From a phage: a stretch of DNA of 64,000 bases. The stretch lies in sequence record PZ445487.1, one strand, 5' to 3'. Numbering within the stretch: the first letter of the stretch is position 1; every line of letters begins with the position of its first letter. Shown here one piece after another: positions 5,319 through 10,671 of the stretch. A program made the position numbers and the translations under genes. Under the pieces are notes generated by a model. It did no database searches. It had not been told where the DNA came from and saw only the letters and a program-made list of their open reading frames with translations.

Positions 5319-5524
5319 TCGGGTTAATCCGTTATCTGTTCATATTCGTAATAACAACATTCATTTTATTTTTCTTTTTCAAATACTTGAAAGAGACTAA
5401 AATCTACCGGAGTAAACGTTGGCGCAAACGGGTGAGGGTAACTTTCCTACTGCTGATTTCTTCGGTTACAATAACTGCACTCACATTGGGTGCTTATATT
5501 TACATTTTTGAAGGAGTACATTGA
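5306..5524 (+). CDS. small membrane protein
   Basis: ORF track; two hydrophobic segments; overlaps downstream SPFH gene start. Confidence 0.45.
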   Translation: MGNMIGLIRYLFIFVITTFILFFFFKYLKETKIYRSKRWRKRVRVTFLLLISSVTITALTLGAYIYIFEGVH

Positions 5525-6315
5525 TGTTCAAGAAACTGGTATTTGGCGCAATTATGGTCCTAGCGGCAAGCCTTCTTTCAGGCTGCGGCGGTGTTATCGA
5601 TGAAGGAAACGTCGGTGTTCGAACCCAATGGGGTGAAGTGGACATGAACCCTGTAACCGCAGGTATCTACACCAGTTTCGTTTCAAGTGTAGATGTCTAT
5701 ACGACTAAAGAAGCCGTCGTGAGTCTGACGAAAATGACGCCAAAGGCCAAAGACAACCTGACCTTGGAAGATCTGGATGTGGACGTTTATTACACACCGA
5801 ACGTCGCGAAGGTTCCTTGGTTCCATACCAAATTTGCAGGTCAGAGCGCTGAACTCGGTGACGGCACGATAGCGGTGGGATTCAACCTGGTTAAAACCGC
5901 CGCAGCATCCTCAACGATGGACGCCGTTTCTTCTTTGGATTCTATGACAATTCACACCCAACGGGCTGAGTTAGAAAAGATGATCAAGGAACGCACCCAG
6001 CAGCAATTAGAAACAGCTGCACCTGGCATGTTCACAATCACACGCGTGTTGGTCAAAAAGGCGCTGACAGATCCTTCGATTGAGCAATCTATCCGTGATA
6101 ATGTCATGGCCGACAAACGTTTGGATACAGCAAGAAAGAACGTTGAAATTCGCGACCAAGAAGCCAAGGCGAATCAGAAACTGACGACATCTCTGACACC
6201 TGAATATTTACAACACGAATATAACATGGTGTTGCAATCTTGCGCCAACAGCGGGAAATGTACTCTGATTGTTGATGGTTCAGGCTCAAGTAAAATGCTA
6301 AACGTCGGCAAATAA
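5524..6315 (+). CDS. SPFH/band-7 domain lipoprotein (putative)
   Basis: Signal peptide with lipobox LLSGC; GNVGVRTQWGEV...P..AGIYTSF resembles HflK/C-stomatin SPFH N-terminal motif; GAAGGAG RBS. Confidence 0.6.
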   Translation: MFKKLVFGAIMVLAASLLSGCGGVIDEGNVGVRTQWGEVDMNPVTAGIYTSFVSSVDVYTTKEAVVSLTKMTPKAKDNLTLEDLDVDVYYTPNVAKVPWFHTKFAGQSAELGDGTIAVGFNLVKTAAASSTMDAVSSLDSMTIHTQRAELEKMIKERTQQQLETAAPGMFTITRVLVKKALTDPSIEQSIRDNVMADKRLDTARKNVEIRDQEAKANQKLTTSLTPEYLQHEYNMVLQSCANSGKCTLIVDGSGSSKMLNVGK

Positions 6316-6398
6316 ACGCTTTATTCAATAATATTTGTTAGGTAAGCTGTAGTCCTCTTGTAGTGAAACATTGTAAACAACTAACTGGAGTAATCCGA

Positions 6399-6677
6399 AT
6401 GAACCGTACTGATTTTATTGCTCACATCGCCCAGACTCAGGGTATGACCAAAGGCGAAGCTGAGAAAATCGTTGCATCTTTTATCAATGGCGTGAAAACT
6501 GCAGTCGCGGCTGGCCAATCTGTCCAATTCGTAGGCTTCGGCGCGTTCGAAGTTAAACATCAGGAAGCGCGCACTGGCCGCAACCCGCTGAACGGACAAC
6601 AGATCCAGATCGAAGCGAAAAATGTAGTTAAATTCAAAGTCGGTGAAGGTCTGAAAGCTGCTGCCAACGGCCAGTAA
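6399..6677 (+). CDS. HU/IHF-family histone-like DNA-binding protein
   Basis: Internal ATG of ORF 6363..6677; motifs GFGAFEV and RTGRNP..G typical of HU beta-arm. Confidence 0.75.
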   Translation: MNRTDFIAHIAQTQGMTKGEAEKIVASFINGVKTAVAAGQSVQFVGFGAFEVKHQEARTGRNPLNGQQIQIEAKNVVKFKVGEGLKAAANGQ

Positions 6678-6736
6678 TCACACCAGGCGTCGGCCCAGCG
6701 CATGTCTGCAGTGCAGCGGCGCAAGGCTAAAAGGAG

Positions 6737-6764
6737 AAGCCGAGGTTAATGCCTCGGCTTTTTC
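6737..6764 (+). terminator. rho-independent terminator after HU-like gene
   Basis: Hairpin AGCCGAGG-TTAAT-GCCTCGGCT followed by TTTTTCG. Confidence 0.65.
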
Positions 6765-6812
6765 GTTGTTGGGATTCGGGTAAACTATAACAGAATCCAA
6801 AGGAGGAACAAC

Positions 6813-8534
6813 GTGACAGCATTTAATCAACACCGAAAGGCGATTGACGCCATAGGCCGTAAGGTTCCTGTGGAAGAAATACAACGCCTTACCAAAGATG
6901 AATTCCCATATGACAAAGCGAACCCAGGCCAGATGGAATGCATCGTCGAAGCCATAGATGCGCTTATCAACAAAAAGGTTAAACATGTCATCATTGAAGC
7001 TCCGACAGGTGTCGGTAAATCTTTGATTGGCACTACCATTCATAAAGTGATTCGCCATCTAGTTTTACAGGCTGATCCTTATGGGCAATTTCGCACTTCT
7101 ATCAGCACCCCGACCAAAGGTCTGCAAGATCAGTATGCTGCTGAAAAGGCGGTGGCGATAGACATCCTAAAAGGCAAGAAGAACTATCGTTGCCACGTAC
7201 ATCCAGATGTGTATTACAATGCTGTCCAATGCCGTATAGCATGCCGTGACGGGCATTGTAGCAAACGCCGCTGTCCTTATGTACAGGCGCGTAATTTGTG
7301 GACGGATATTTCATCATTGCGTTGTACTAATGCTGCCATGATGATCGAAATGTGTACAACCATCTGCATGAAGCCCGAAAACCGTTCCGATATGCTGATC
7401 CTTGACGAGTGCCATAAAATGCCCTCTACGCTCCTAGAGCACACGATCATGGAATACAATACAAAGGCCGTGGAGGGGCTGCGTTCTATCCCTGAGGGCA
7501 AGGAGATCGTCTCTACCATTGGTGATATCGTAGAACGCACCAAGGACTATGTCCTGGGCAAGTTATATTCTTTGTCTGGTGAACTGCATTCAATGTTTGA
7601 AGCCCTCCATCTCAAAGTAGAAAATTTGTTGGAAGTTCTTGAAGAATTGGTCGAAGATGATCGCTTGAGTGAAAGCCAAGTGATGAAACTCGCCGACATT
7701 ATAGATGTCTTGCATAACTTGAGTGATTATTGCGGTATTATGTCACAAACCCAAGCAAGTACATTTATTGTGCAAGATAAGGGGGAAGATTTTATCCGGT
7801 TTAAACCTGTTATGCCTTCTGATGTAAGCGAATTCGGGTTATTCCGAAAAGCCGATTATCACGTTCATATGTCAGCAACGATCTGTGGTATAGATTCATA
7901 TGCTCGTTCATTGGGTATTCGACAGGGGGATTATCATTCCATTCAGATCGGCAACCCTATCCCGATTGAAAACAGAAAAGTCAACTATATGCCCATAGTG
8001 AAGATGACTAACAATATGGGTGACTATGAAATGAAAAGGTTGACGGAATATATTGATGAAATAATCGCGTTCCACCCAGGTCAGTCCGGCATTATCCATA
8101 CAGTGAGTTATGATCGCGCCTTGGCAATACAAAAATTCAGCAAATATCAGAATTTTATCCATGTTCCGCGTACCCGAAAGGCGTTGATGGATATTATGGA
8201 AAATGCTTTTAGAACAAAGTCCCCATGCGTCATTGCCAGTCCGGCTATGGAAGAAGGTTATGATTTCAAAGGGGATTACAGCCGTTTCCAAATACTGATC
8301 AAAGTCCCTTATGATTATCTGGGCGATCCACTGATAGCACATATCAATTCAGTGGATCCGTCGGCATACTTCCGCAATGCAGTACTGCGCATTGTTCAAA
8401 TGTGTGGACGTTCGGTCAGGGGTGTTGATGACTGGGCTGCGACATACATCATTGATTCATCCTTTGAATCTCTTATGATGCGCAACCCAGAATTCTTCCC
8501 AACCTGGTTCACCGATGCAGTGTTTGAGGTTTAA
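6813..8534 (+). CDS. DinG/XPD(Rad3)-type Fe-S helicase
   Basis: GTG start with AGGAGG RBS; Walker A APTGVGKS, DECH box (ILDECHK), Cys cluster CRIACRDGHCSKRRCP between motifs. Confidence 0.7.
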   Translation: MTAFNQHRKAIDAIGRKVPVEEIQRLTKDEFPYDKANPGQMECIVEAIDALINKKVKHVIIEAPTGVGKSLIGTTIHKVIRHLVLQADPYGQFRTSISTPTKGLQDQYAAEKAVAIDILKGKKNYRCHVHPDVYYNAVQCRIACRDGHCSKRRCPYVQARNLWTDISSLRCTNAAMMIEMCTTICMKPENRSDMLILDECHKMPSTLLEHTIMEYNTKAVEGLRSIPEGKEIVSTIGDIVERTKDYVLGKLYSLSGELHSMFEALHLKVENLLEVLEELVEDDRLSESQVMKLADIIDVLHNLSDYCGIMSQTQASTFIVQDKGEDFIRFKPVMPSDVSEFGLFRKADYHVHMSATICGIDSYARSLGIRQGDYHSIQIGNPIPIENRKVNYMPIVKMTNNMGDYEMKRLTEYIDEIIAFHPGQSGIIHTVSYDRALAIQKFSKYQNFIHVPRTRKALMDIMENAFRTKSPCVIASPAMEEGYDFKGDYSRFQILIKVPYDYLGDPLIAHINSVDPSAYFRNAVLRIVQMCGRSVRGVDDWAATYIIDSSFESLMMRNPEFFPTWFTDAVFEV

Positions 8535-9298
8535 TAACCCGCAATAAACGATAAATGGCACTTGATATTTGGTTCAAGTGTCGTTATCGTGATAATCATA
8601 TTGTCCACATCTTGGCTGAAAGATATATTTGCGATCGGTTTGGTTTGAACATGATTATACAGGCTATAAATCAGATCTTCACCACGATAACCGATTTTGC
8701 CATCAGTGTCCTGCCAATGACCGAGGGTAGACTCTCGAGCGTGTACTCGGAATTCGACCATATGAAACAATGCTTTTGGGATGGTCTTCAGTATGCTGGT
8801 CCCAACAACCGGAATATCAATAGAAGAGTCGTTGGAGTTTCCTTCATAAACAGATTCCCAACCAAATATTGGATCACCTCCTGCCACAGGAGTTCTTTTC
8901 CAGTATTGGAATTCTGGGTTGCCCGAAGCGTTCTTTTGTAGGAGGATTACTTCACCGCCTTCAAAATTGGAAGTGTCTATATCGTCCCTTGCTAATAAAT
9001 CTGCCGGAGAACCAATAAATTTCCAAGTTTCGCGATCTAAAATAGACTTATAATAATCGGTGAATACGTTGCTGTCGTTAGCTGCATTGATTGCGTCTTT
9101 AAGACCTTCACCTGTGACCATCTCATTAAGTTTTAGCCACATGTTTTTGACAGCTGACGCAGCTGCGACTTGACCTTCAGTCCCACCCGCCGTGTAGTCA
9201 TAAATGATGTCCAGCTTTTGTATGGAATCATTTATAGACAAGAGCAAACGCTCAATTTCTGGGGCGGTCAGACTGAAACGATATGCGCGTTCTGACAT
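8531..9298 (-). CDS. hypothetical protein (opposite-strand ORF inside early region)
   Basis: ORF track; GAGGA RBS; 3' end overlaps the helicase stop by 4 nt. Confidence 0.5.
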   Translation of the reverse strand: MSERAYRFSLTAPEIERLLLSINDSIQKLDIIYDYTAGGTEGQVAAASAVKNMWLKLNEMVTGEGLKDAINAANDSNVFTDYYKSILDRETWKFIGSPADLLARDDIDTSNFEGGEVILLQKNASGNPEFQYWKRTPVAGGDPIFGWESVYEGNSNDSSIDIPVVGTSILKTIPKALFHMVEFRVHARESTLGHWQDTDGKIGYRGEDLIYSLYNHVQTKPIANISFSQDVDNMIITITTLEPNIKCHLSFIAGY

Positions 9299-9340
9299 GA
9301 TTCGTTCCTCATCGATAAAACCAGTTTGGGATACTTATAC

Positions 9341-9868
9341 ATGATTGAAATATACACTGACGGGGCATCGTCCCCTCAGAAGACACGAGCCGCTGGTTGG
9401 GCATTTGCCATCAGTCCAATCACTGGAGAGCAATGGAAAGTGTTTTATGGGTATTTACCCCCGCCGTCAACGAACAATATAGCTGAGTTACTCGGGGTTA
9501 TAAACGCAATGAAGATCCTATGGAAATTCTCTAATTGCGGTGAACGCTGCATTCCCCCAGCCCGCATTATATCCGACAGCCAATATGTTATCAATAGCGT
9601 TTTGGAGTGGCGTCGTAAATGGGAATATGAAGGAATGCCGCCTAAGAACACAGAACTTCTGCTCGAGTTGTTCGATTATTATGACAAAGTTTGTTCAATT
9701 TGTGAACTTGAATTAAAATGGGTGAAAGGTCATGCAGGAACGATGGGCAACGAAATTGCGGATCAGTGGAGCGTTAGAGCCAAAGAAGATAGTTCAATGG
9801 TTCTTGAAAATAACCGTTTCTCGGTCAAGAAAGTCGTTGGTTCTTTCAATGAATTCATTGGTATTTGA
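9341..9868 (+). CDS. ribonuclease HI (RNase H type 1)
   Basis: Motifs IYTDGAS, NNIAEL, SDSQYV, KGHAG..NE.AD matching the RNase HI catalytic D-E-D-H-D set. Confidence 0.75.
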   Translation: MIEIYTDGASSPQKTRAAGWAFAISPITGEQWKVFYGYLPPPSTNNIAELLGVINAMKILWKFSNCGERCIPPARIISDSQYVINSVLEWRRKWEYEGMPPKNTELLLELFDYYDKVCSICELELKWVKGHAGTMGNEIADQWSVRAKEDSSMVLENNRFSVKKVVGSFNEFIGI

Positions 9869-9879
9869 GGATTATCACG

Positions 9880-10671
9880 ATGGGTATGAATTTTGTAGAC
9901 AGGGGTGATAACGTCACCAAATATTTCACAGACGAAGATAATGACCGTGTTGTTGGAATATTGAGAGATTGGATTCCGGCTCGCAAAAAGGCTTTGGCCG
10001 AAGGAACACCCCTACCAAGAATCCCCAATTATGTGGCCATGAATGTTCAGATGATTATTAAGAACATGAGTATGCGCTACAACTATCGTGATTATCCATA
10101 CCGCGAAGACATGGTCAGTGAGGCCGTTGTCAACATCCTTCGTTACCTCCATACATTTGACGTCAGTCATATCGGCAAGAAAGGAAAAATCAATTTCTTC
10201 TCTTGGGTAACGATGTGCGCCGATCGTTCATTCGCCAAGAAACTCACCAGTGAAGAAGAACACAATTATATCAAGTTGCGTTCATTTGAAGAAGCAGGTG
10301 GTTTCGCTGCATTATCAGATGACCCAGACTTCCAGCAACAGACATTCGTAGACAGCACTGGTATAACAATGGACTTCCGTGAGCGTATCGGAAATTTTGA
10401 AACTAAGAAAGAAGCACAGCGCGAAAAGGAACGCCAAAAGCAAATCGCCATCAAAGAAGAGGAAAAGAATAAGAAAATTCCTCGCGGTATACTTCAATGT
10501 CTCACAAAGAGTGAAAATACCATTACCGCCGACGCCGAAGATAATTCAGACTATGACTTCGGCTCTACTCAATTCAATCTGGAAGACGAAATATGTTCTA
10601 TGGAACCAGATTGGGAAGAAGCAAAGAAACGAGCATTAGAACGGGAGCAACAAAATAATGGCGATTGCTAA
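9880..10671 (+). CDS. 55: late-promoter sigma factor gp55
   Basis: Alignable by eye to T4 gp55 (RYNYRDY, LHTFD, INFFSWVTMCADRSFAKK); GAGGA RBS before internal ATG. Confidence 0.8.
   Translation: MGMNFVDRGDNVTKYFTDEDNDRVVGILRDWIPARKKALAEGTPLPRIPNYVAMNVQMIIKNMSMRYNYRDYPYREDMVSEAVVNILRYLHTFDVSHIGKKGKINFFSWVTMCADRSFAKKLTSEEEHNYIKLRSFEEAGGFAALSDDPDFQQQTFVDSTGITMDFRERIGNFETKKEAQREKERQKQIAIKEEEKNKKIPRGILQCLTKSENTITADAEDNSDYDFGSTQFNLEDEICSMEPDWEEAKKRALEREQQNNGDC

Follow-up and report, generated by a model that had tools for sequence, protein, structure and literature searches.

Our analysis indicates that orf124 and orf123 of Escherichia phage CBA120 (Kuttervirus, Ackermannviridae) are an unrelated pair of genes, both long conserved and both annotated already, lying tail to tail. 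In our preferred reading, to which we give a probability of about 0.8, they are independent, vertically inherited and Ackermannviridae-wide, with an XPD/DinG helicase (orf124) meeting a late virion protein that has a gp9-related C-terminal domain (orf123) in a T4-type layout. The stretch of 64,000 nucleotides that was analysed, referred to here as the window, is 100% identical to CBA120, whose annotation names the pair as orf124 (plus strand, helicase) and orf123 (minus strand). An earlier note, made from the sequence alone, had spoken of a T4-like phage; that label is loose, the phage belonging to the Ackermannviridae, a peripheral relative of T4. The features of the pair are as follows.

6801-6806, plus strand: ribosome-binding site AGGAGG of orf124, 6 nt before the GTG at 6813
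6813-8534, plus strand: orf124, XPD/DinG-family SF2 helicase, 573 aa, GTG start (Pfam, phrog_2488, AlphaFold, Foldseek)
6999-7022, plus strand: Walker A APTGVGKS, aa 63-70 (P64, T65, G66, G68, K69 and S70 invariant in 32 sequences)
7191-7274, plus strand: compact 4-Cys motif C127, C140, C149, C154, a probable [4Fe-4S] domain (invariant Cys)
7404-7415, plus strand: motif II DECH, a DEAH-box variant, aa 198-201 (D198, E199 and H201 invariant)
8531-8534, neither strand in particular: TTAA, shared stop codons of the convergent genes (from the sequence)
8531-9298, minus strand: orf123, virion structural protein of 255 aa, ATG start, probably late (mass spectrometry of orthologues)
8540-8845, minus strand: C-terminal beta-sandwich domain of orf123, aa 152-253, resembling the C-terminal domain of T4 gp9
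9306-9310, minus strand: ribosome-binding site GAGGA of orf123, 7-nt spacer to the ATG at 9298-9296

Positions 8526-8534 read GAG GTT TAA. The stop of orf124 is the TAA at 8532-8534 and that of orf123 is the TAA complementary to TTA at 8531-8533, so that the two genes share 4 nt, the palindrome TTAA. The convergent ORFs with a 4-nt stop overlap and the 255-aa minus-strand ORF with its own ribosome-binding site, both described in the earlier note, were thus borne out. PHROG matches of both ORFs and the conservation of orf123 show that both are genuine genes.

The assignment of orf124 to the Rad3/DinG family, also made from the sequence alone, agrees with Pfam, NCBIfam, a PDB sequence search and Foldseek. 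Pfam Helicase_C_2 (PF13307) is found at aa 465-566 with 46.1 bits against a cut-off of 25.3, phrog_2488 is matched with an E of 1.6e-264, DinG heads the matches of the PDB sequence search, and the NCBIfam models for DinG, YoaA and rad3 match weakly. The AlphaFold model (pLDDT 89.3, pTM 0.88) has the four-domain fold (HD1, FeS, Arch, HD2), and its top Foldseek matches are DinG (6fws, E 1.9e-25, TM 0.64), XPD and CasDinG, with near full-length alignments to DinG and XPD. PTGxGKS (64-70), DExH (198-201) and motif VI with its arginine finger (QxxGRxxRG, 529-537) are unchanged in all 32 homologues; a helical Arch-like insertion lies at aa 210-340, between motifs II and III. The predicted domain order is a RecA-like domain 1 bearing the 4-Cys and Arch-like insertions, then the Helicase_C_2 domain. 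Orthology to DinG or YoaA was rejected in favour of a family relationship, the scores being far under the NCBIfam equivalog cut-offs (57.6 vs 598 bits for DinG, NF008729; 53 vs 680 for YoaA, NF053712), which places orf124 in a separate viral clade (phrog_2488). We know of no biochemically characterised member of this clade.

The four cysteines C127, C140, C149 and C154 are located between motifs Ia and II and are invariant across the 32 homologues, down to 32% identity. C149 and C154 align to C199 and C205 of DinG, which we take to be cluster ligands. With regard to the Fe-S cluster proposed earlier, the conserved 4-Cys motif is indeed present at the position of the Fe-S domain, and the cluster itself stays a prediction: the compact insertion is a probable [4Fe-4S] domain, and its cysteines could bind zinc instead. 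The neighbourhood of orf124 is a replication/recombination block (HU - helicase - RNase HI - gp55 - gp47 - gp46). Expression of the protein would precede that of the late genes, and its part in phage replication and recombination would be that of an ATP-driven 5'->3' helicase working on branched DNA or R-loops.

The proteomics of two orthologues establishes that orf123 is a virion structural protein. LIMEstone1 ORF093 (28.3 kDa), which is 82% identical to orf123, was confirmed as a structural protein by mass spectrometry, with 8 unique peptides and 40.8% coverage, and 39 spectra of Sajous1 gp203, 97% identical, were obtained from CsCl-purified virions. A publication of 2012 had already described an orthologue as structural. 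orf123 matches phrog_3833 with an E of 4e-165 and, compared with its LIMEstone1 orthologue, has a dN/dS of 0.03.

Within the virion, orf123 probably belongs to the periphery of the baseplate or to the tail-fibre network, because its C-terminal domain is related to that of T4 gp9. BFVD structure matches include gp9 connectors, and in two independent structure libraries T4-type gp9 ranks first among the functionally annotated matches. Comparison of the C-terminal domains of orf123 and gp9 by hhalign with family profiles on both sides gave 85% and an E of 6e-6; significance was reached only in this setting, the single-sequence comparison with T4 gp9 being not significant (E 0.068). A homologue is named 'baseplate wedge tail fiber protein connector' in GenBank record H115, and in the Pseudomonas orthologue the N-terminal part hits PHROGs of tail fibres. 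The stretch 'DSNVFTD..K..L', considered as a phage tail-fibre repeat, was not confirmed as such by Pfam, and only the PHROG matches of the Pseudomonas orthologue stand. For orf123 and four distant orthologues, Pfam returned no family at E <= 1, including the gp9 models PF07880 and PF23618, whose domains are present in all true gp9 homologues. An NCBIfam search of orf123 gave nothing meaningful, and PDB sequence searches with the protein and with the family profile gave no match. The N-terminal 155 residues, to be compared with the N-terminal coiled coil and XD1-type middle domain of gp9, were modelled with low confidence (pLDDT below 60) and the gp9 profile alignment lies outside them, so the gp9 link is limited to the C-terminal domain.

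The C-terminal fold of gp9 is a small beta-sandwich that is present in other phage proteins too. It is conceivable, if on balance doubtful, that orf123 is a virion protein that merely shares this common fold and is not a gp9-like baseplate part, being for example a head or neck decoration or a fibre-associated protein. The confinement of the gp9 match to the C-terminal ~100 residues and the silence of the Pfam gp9 models point in this direction, as does a recent review in which gp9-gp11 are reported to be absent from Ackermannviridae. However, the first rank of T4-type gp9 in both structure libraries, the E value of the profile-profile comparison and the tail-fibre matches of the Pseudomonas orthologue argue for the gp9-related reading. 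Taking this reading further, we tentatively suggest that orf123 may be the 'missing' gp9-like adaptor of the Ackermannviridae, a trimeric connector that would dock the branched TSP1-4 complex onto the baseplate via the TSP4 anchor domain; it would be encoded apart from the other baseplate genes, antisense in the gp55 operon, and its late transcription would perhaps damp that operon. A candidate gp9-like adaptor in a family reportedly without one is a mildly new point, and it makes orf123 a definite protein to consider as the partner of the tailspike complex in the baseplate.

Two motifs upstream of orf123 bear on the time of its expression.

9332-9339, minus strand: TATAAGTA, probable gp55-type late promoter of orf123, one base off the T4 TATAAATA, starting at -41
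9452-9457, minus strand: exact TAAATA, 153 nt upstream of orf123 and within the RNase H coding sequence, candidate second late promoter, Kuttervirus-specific

Since orf123 carries a late-promoter motif, it is probably expressed late, and orf124 at another time, as with T4 late genes. A promoter of TA(T)AAATA type, in the 42-bp gap between orf123 and the divergent RNase H gene, would direct transcription of orf123 by RNA polymerase bearing gp55, the sigma factor of the phage. gp55 is found at 9865-10671, two genes from orf123, and a gp33-like gene is annotated in the window. According to the CBA120 genome paper the late promoter of Ackermannviridae had not yet been identified, and our literature search found no transcript data for any Ackermannviridae phage, Kuttervirus included. 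The LIMEstone1 annotation has a late promoter at the corresponding place upstream of the orf123 orthologue. All eight non-Kuttervirus orthologues compared have TAAATA 26-40 nt upstream of the start (hexamer starts at -32 to -46), including three in which the upstream DNA is otherwise unalignable. The proximal hexamer in Kuttervirus phages, CBA120 among them, is at the same place and reads TAAGTA, not TAAATA. The distal TAAATA is found in CBA120 and Vi01 and is absent from other genera; judged by its sequence, it may be a second, Kuttervirus-specific late promoter.

The strict T4 late octamer TATAAATA has two sites in 64 kb, which does not exceed the chance expectation, and the analysis was therefore moved to the hexamer core TAAATA. 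This core is rare (22 sites in 2 x 64 kb), and nine of its sites are intergenic, 25-37 nt before a same-strand start codon. The genes that follow include several structural or T4-late-type ones, namely baseplate orf043, orf081, orf090, orf092, gp2 (orf079), orf108 and orf109. The last two seem to correspond to ORF078 and ORF080 of LIMEstone1, both confirmed as structural proteins. Lying at this distance before nine genes, the majority of which are structural or of T4 late type, TAAATA is a testable late-promoter core.

The earlier note also held orf123 to be the only opposite-strand gene in its block. In the CBA120 annotation this is so for positions 1 to ~28,800 of the window; three more minus-strand islands occur beyond. 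Together with a hairpin upstream of the helicase, they are listed below.

6733-6764, both strands: strong terminator-like hairpin between the HU-like gene and the helicase
about 29.6-33.0 kb, minus strand: structural island orf090-093 (CBA120 annotation)
36.8-37.8 kb, minus strand: structural island consisting of the single gene orf081 (CBA120 annotation)
53.4-58.2 kb, minus strand: structural island orf043-047 (CBA120 annotation)

Late structural genes opposite to early genes are the normal T4-type layout, the shared TTAA stop would reflect tight genome packing, and convergent transcription is most likely separated in time and not colliding. A transcriptional collision of orf124 and orf123 is geometrically possible, and from this geometry a regulatory role of the overlap could be built: late transcription of orf123 would run antisense through the helicase to the hairpin at 6733-6764, meet the rightward RNase H/gp55/gp47/gp46 transcription head-on, and shut down early and middle expression, including that of gp55. 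We regard such a role as improbable. In its favour, no terminator-like structure was found at the orf124/orf123 junction, and the next minus-strand terminator-like hairpin past it is that at 6733-6764, 1.77 kb downstream (plus strand -25.7 kcal/mol, z -5.0, then UUUUUCGUUGUU; minus strand -15.8 kcal/mol, z -4.4), which is also flagged as a minus-strand terminator and where LIMEstone1 has an annotated terminator. No sigma-70-like plus-strand promoter was found between orf123 and RNase H, which may force rightward transcripts to pass through orf123 in antisense; moreover, packing end to end (-4 to 0 nt) persists even with a different partner gene. On the other hand, the argument is purely geometrical, and genome compaction accounts for the junction equally well. 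A second zero-gap convergent junction in the window (orf047/orf048, 0 nt) has no such context, and the overlap varies among relatives: it is 4 nt (TTAA, or CTAA/TTAG) in Vi01, Sajous1, LIMEstone1, Gloob, 0507-KN2-1 and Kevin, 17 nt in VAP7 and 0 nt in Serratia 3M, where the genes abut, so that its exact length is under no obvious constraint. As a terminator for the helicase, a plus-strand hairpin at 8878-8892, within orf123 and with a T-run, did not convince: although Kuttervirus phages retain it, its stem and T-run degenerate in the other genera, and most of the stem is a consequence of the codons for 'PVAG'.

The comparison of relatives is in line with vertical inheritance. Both genes are present in every relative examined, across five genera, each in 283 phage records at >= 60% identity, and orf123 has 360 tblastn-positive phage records. 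The tail-to-tail arrangement is found in Kuttervirus, Limestonevirus, Agtrevirus, Taipeivirus and Miltonvirus. The minus-strand ORF, whose absence or disruption in relatives had been set beforehand as the outcome that would speak against the earlier note, is on the contrary intact in all relatives examined, and the proteins of its orthologues are present in virions. Because of this five-genus conservation, the further gene that separates the pair in Vibrio and Pseudomonas relatives, and an unremarkable GC (helicase 0.441, orf123 0.423, window 0.445), horizontal acquisition as a module is not supported. That a T4-like phage acquired helicase and orf123 together as a two-gene module is very hard to credit: no XPD/DinG-type helicase is known from T4 and orf123 is the sole opposite-strand gene in about 29 kb, but some 80 kb lie between gene 70 (the helicase) and gene 222 (the orf123-like one) of Delftia phage phiW-14, the functions are unrelated (DNA metabolism and virion), and the families differ greatly in range and size, the helicase family extending to Rhizobium phages, haloarchaeal viruses and jumbo phages and that of orf123 having only 59 representatives among 1.84 billion proteins.

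GenBank records of both genes in this arrangement date back to 2010-2011, and the importance of the pair beyond annotation is small. The Ackermannviridae helicase can now be labelled specifically, as XPD/DinG-type with a probable Fe-S domain.

Compared with known systems, orf124 shares with E. coli DinG and archaeal/eukaryotic XPD (Rad3) the SF2 core, Walker A, a DEAH-type motif II and Helicase_C_2, as well as the placement of a Cys cluster between motifs Ia and II and of a helical insertion between II and III. It differs in having only about 15% identity to them, in being shorter (573 aa vs 716 for DinG) and in the very compact Cys motif, C-x12-C-x8-C-x4-C over 28 residues, whereas the cluster ligands of DinG presumably span about 85 residues.

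The likeness of orf123 to T4 late genes, which depend on gp55, use TATAAATA and often lie on the strand opposite to early genes, consists in the gp55 and gp33 homologues encoded in the window, in the TAAATA core found 25-40 nt before structural genes, the orf123 orthologues among them, and in the fact that orf123 and the other opposite-strand islands are structural genes. In contrast to the T4 octamer, the conserved core here is the hexamer, with variable preceding bases, and the CBA120 orf123 has TAAGTA.

T4 gp9, the baseplate wedge tail-fibre connector, is of similar size to orf123 (288 vs 255 aa), and both are virion proteins, but their N-terminal and middle parts have no detectable similarity. 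Unlike T4 gp9, orf123 is encoded alone among replication genes and not in a baseplate cluster, and the Ackermannviridae have branched tailspike complexes instead of long tail fibres.

The region 6300-9900 is a 100% megablast match, in reverse orientation, to Escherichia phage CBA120 (JN593240 / NC_016570; Kuttervirus, Ackermannviridae), which has been described as no more than peripherally related to T4. That genome already carries annotations for the feature, with orf124 as a 'putative ATP-dependent helicase' and orf123 as a 'conserved hypothetical phage protein', and orf123 is already backed by published proteomics. The elements concerned are:

6813..8534, plus strand: helicase ORF (orf124), 573 aa, GTG start, from the ORF listing
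6 nt 5' of that GTG, plus strand: ribosome-binding site of the helicase, AGGAGG, read from the sequence
8531..9298, minus strand: orf123 ORF, 255 aa, ATG start, from the ORF listing
7 nt 5' of that ATG, minus strand: ribosome-binding site of orf123, GAGGA, read from the sequence
9865-10671: gene for the late sigma factor gp55
in the window, minus strand: structural island orf090-093 (baseplate hub, gp5, gp25)
in the window between gp2 and gp32, minus strand: structural island consisting of a single gp54-like gene, orf081
in the window, minus strand: island of structural genes, orf043-047

The convergent genes with stops overlapping by 4 nt, and the minus-strand ORF's own ribosome-binding site, are confirmed as the earlier note described them; both stop codons lie inside TTAA at 8531-8534 (junction sequence GAG GTT TAA). 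A terminator-like structure was sought at this junction and none was found. That orf123 is the only opposite-strand gene holds from window 1 to ~28.8 kb in the CBA120 annotation; three further minus-strand structural islands occur in the window, so this genome shows the pattern more than once. Tail-to-tail tightness is likewise a habit of CBA120 and not special to this pair, since a second convergent pair, orf047/orf048 at ~53368/53369 (a structural gene and the gp59 helicase loader), has a zero-nucleotide gap.

The proposal that the two genes form a horizontally acquired module is unsupported. In five genera (Kuttervirus, Limestonevirus, Agtrevirus, Taipeivirus and Miltonvirus) the order HU, helicase, orf123, RNase H, gp55, gp47, gp46 is kept, with orf123 converging on the helicase gene and diverging from RNase H, and the convergent genes either overlap by 4 nt (TTAA or CTAA/TTAG) or abut. 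The GC content of both genes is ordinary, and 283 records at >=60% identity were found for each. The Vibrio phages VAP7 and K474 and the Pseudomonas phage Cygsa01 also have their orf123 orthologue on the opposite strand, close to RNase H (with one extra gene between the two in Cygsa01); in all three, at least one other gene separates it from the helicase, and it instead overlaps the 3' end of the gene that converges on it, by 17 nt in VAP7 and 4 nt in both K474 and Cygsa01. In Delftia phage phiW-14, gene 222, a distant relative of orf123, runs in the same direction as RNase H, gp55, gp47 and gp46, with the helicase ~80 kb away. None of these features agrees with a two-gene module acquired recently.

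For orf123, no Pfam family and no PDB sequence match was found; phrog_3833 matches over its full length, 360 phage records are positive by tblastn, and dN/dS is 0.03 against the orthologue of Dickeya phage LIMEstone1. Many GenBank records label the family '(putative) structural protein', and a few 'baseplate wedge protein' or 'baseplate wedge tail fiber protein connector'. The structural labels have an experimental basis in the proteomics of two phages. LIMEstone1 ORF093 (82% identical) is listed as a 'confirmed structural protein' (28.3 kDa; 8 unique peptides; coverage 40.8%; PMC3296691, Table 2), and in CsCl-purified virions of the Kuttervirus phage Sajous1, gp203 (97% identical) was represented by 39 spectra (PMC10892097, Table 6).

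The AlphaFold model of orf123 is poor for residues 1-155 and confident for a C-terminal beta-sandwich. In a Foldseek search of BFVD, gp9 and gp9+10 connectors rank directly below members of the orf123 family, and profile-profile alignment joins the C-terminal domains of this family and the T4 gp9 family (85% probability, E 6e-6). A recent review has gp9-gp11 absent from Ackermannviridae (PMC11721090); the gp9 link is therefore a small addition that concerns one domain only and is no proof of place in the virion. That orf123 serves as a gp9-like adaptor for the tailspike complex is a tentative, rather doubtful suggestion. Residues 61-88 (window ~9035-9118, minus strand) contain the profile segment 'GLKDAINAA.DSNVFTDYYKSILD', a segment with 6-9 matches in several long proteins (500-965 aa) of a representative library; DUF2922 and lectin-like domains are present in two of these proteins. 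A repeat motif common to orf123 and fibre-like proteins is thereby suggested; the motif itself has no Pfam assignment.

The genome paper of CBA120 regarded its late promoter as not yet identified. The strict form of the T4 octamer, TATAAATA, is not enriched in the window. TAAATA is scarce (22 sites on both strands, among them 58287-, 37832-, 33035-, 31715-, 37808+, 34046+, 22928+, 19626+ and 19030+), and nine of the 22 are intergenic, 25-37 nt 5' of a same-strand start codon. Most of the genes downstream (orf043, orf081, orf090, orf092, orf079 (gp2), orf087, orf102, orf108 and orf109) are structural or of T4-late type, and TAAATA looks like the late-promoter core of this phage. Outside Kuttervirus, each of the eight orf123 orthologues has a TAAATA that starts at -32 to -46, where a single chance match has a probability of ~0.7%; among the eight are VAP7, K474 and Cygsa01, in which the rest of the upstream DNA does not align. 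LIMEstone1 has a late promoter annotated at this upstream site; CBA120 has TATAAGTA at the same place (9339-9332, minus strand), as does Vi01, the proximal site in these Kuttervirus phages being TAAGTA. An exact TAAATA at 9457-9452 (minus strand), 153 nt 5' of the orf123 start and inside the RNase H gene, is found in CBA120 and Vi01 and missing from the other genera; possibly it acts as a second late promoter that compensates for the altered proximal site. Taken together, the TAAATA-type sites, the LIMEstone1 annotation and the gp55 gene make it very likely that orf123 is a gp55-dependent late gene.

In the GenBank record first deposited for CBA120, RNase H (orf121) begins at 9440, a start that cuts 33 N-terminal residues, the 'YTDGA' segment among them; the Pfam RNase_H domain begins already at ~9344. 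RefSeq records of relatives use the equivalent of ATG 9341, giving RNase H 9341-9868 (plus strand), a gap of 42 bp to orf123, and a distance of 4 nt between this ATG and the end of the orf123 promoter hexamer. Antisense in orf123, on the helicase-sense strand, there is a hairpin with a T-rich run behind it at 8878-8892 (plus strand; z -3.7), 345 nt past the helicase stop. Between CBA120 and Vi01/Sajous1 its stem shows one compensatory, synonymous pair (CUCCUG/CAGGAG to CUCCCG/CGGGAG), and it is degraded in the other genera.

The DinG/XPD-type call made earlier for orf124 was correct, and its membership of this helicase family is sound. Helicase_C_2 exceeds the Pfam threshold, with weak ResIII and DEAD matches; E. 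coli DinG is the top PDB sequence match; and the confident AlphaFold model (pLDDT 89.3) has DinG, XPD and CasDinG as top structural matches (E down to 1.9e-25). Walker A, DExH and motif VI are invariant in an alignment of 32 homologues reaching down to 32% identity, as are exactly four cysteines, C127, C140, C149 and C154. These lie between motifs Ia and II, where the 4Fe-4S domain of XPD and DinG is located, with C149 and C154 aligned to C199 and C205 of DinG. The Fe-S cluster itself is predicted, and we infer metal binding, polarity and substrate. The NCBIfam matches (DinG, YoaA, rad3, Csf4) are all sub-threshold, and because scores fall far under the equivalog cut-offs, orf124 is not an orthologue of bacterial DinG or YoaA. 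Its clade, phrog_2488, is viral, with relatives in Vibrio, Aeromonas, Delftia and Rhizobium phages, haloarchaeal viruses and jumbo phages.

Upstream, the HU-like gene is separated from the helicase by a very stable hairpin at 6733-6764, terminator-like in both directions; the helicase would consequently need read-through or a promoter of its own within the 50 bp that precede 6813. An SPFH/Band-7 lipoprotein gene (5521-6315, plus strand; Pfam Band_7, phrog_200) is located two genes upstream of the helicase, and its Sajous1 orthologue, gp200, was represented by 3 spectra in the virion preparation.

We propose that orf123 would be turned on late from its own gp55-type promoter and that its product becomes part of the virion, probably on the periphery of the baseplate. 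Head-on collision at the junction is probably limited, because early and late transcription would be separated in time. That late antisense transcription running over the helicase gene, or opposing the rightward operon with gp55, has a regulatory role seems improbable. The helicase would be made together with other replication and recombination proteins. By analogy with DinG and XPD, it may unwind forks, D-loops or R-loops in the 5'->3' direction. R-loop processing would be compatible with the nearby type-1 RNase H gene, on the same strand and adjacent but for orf123.
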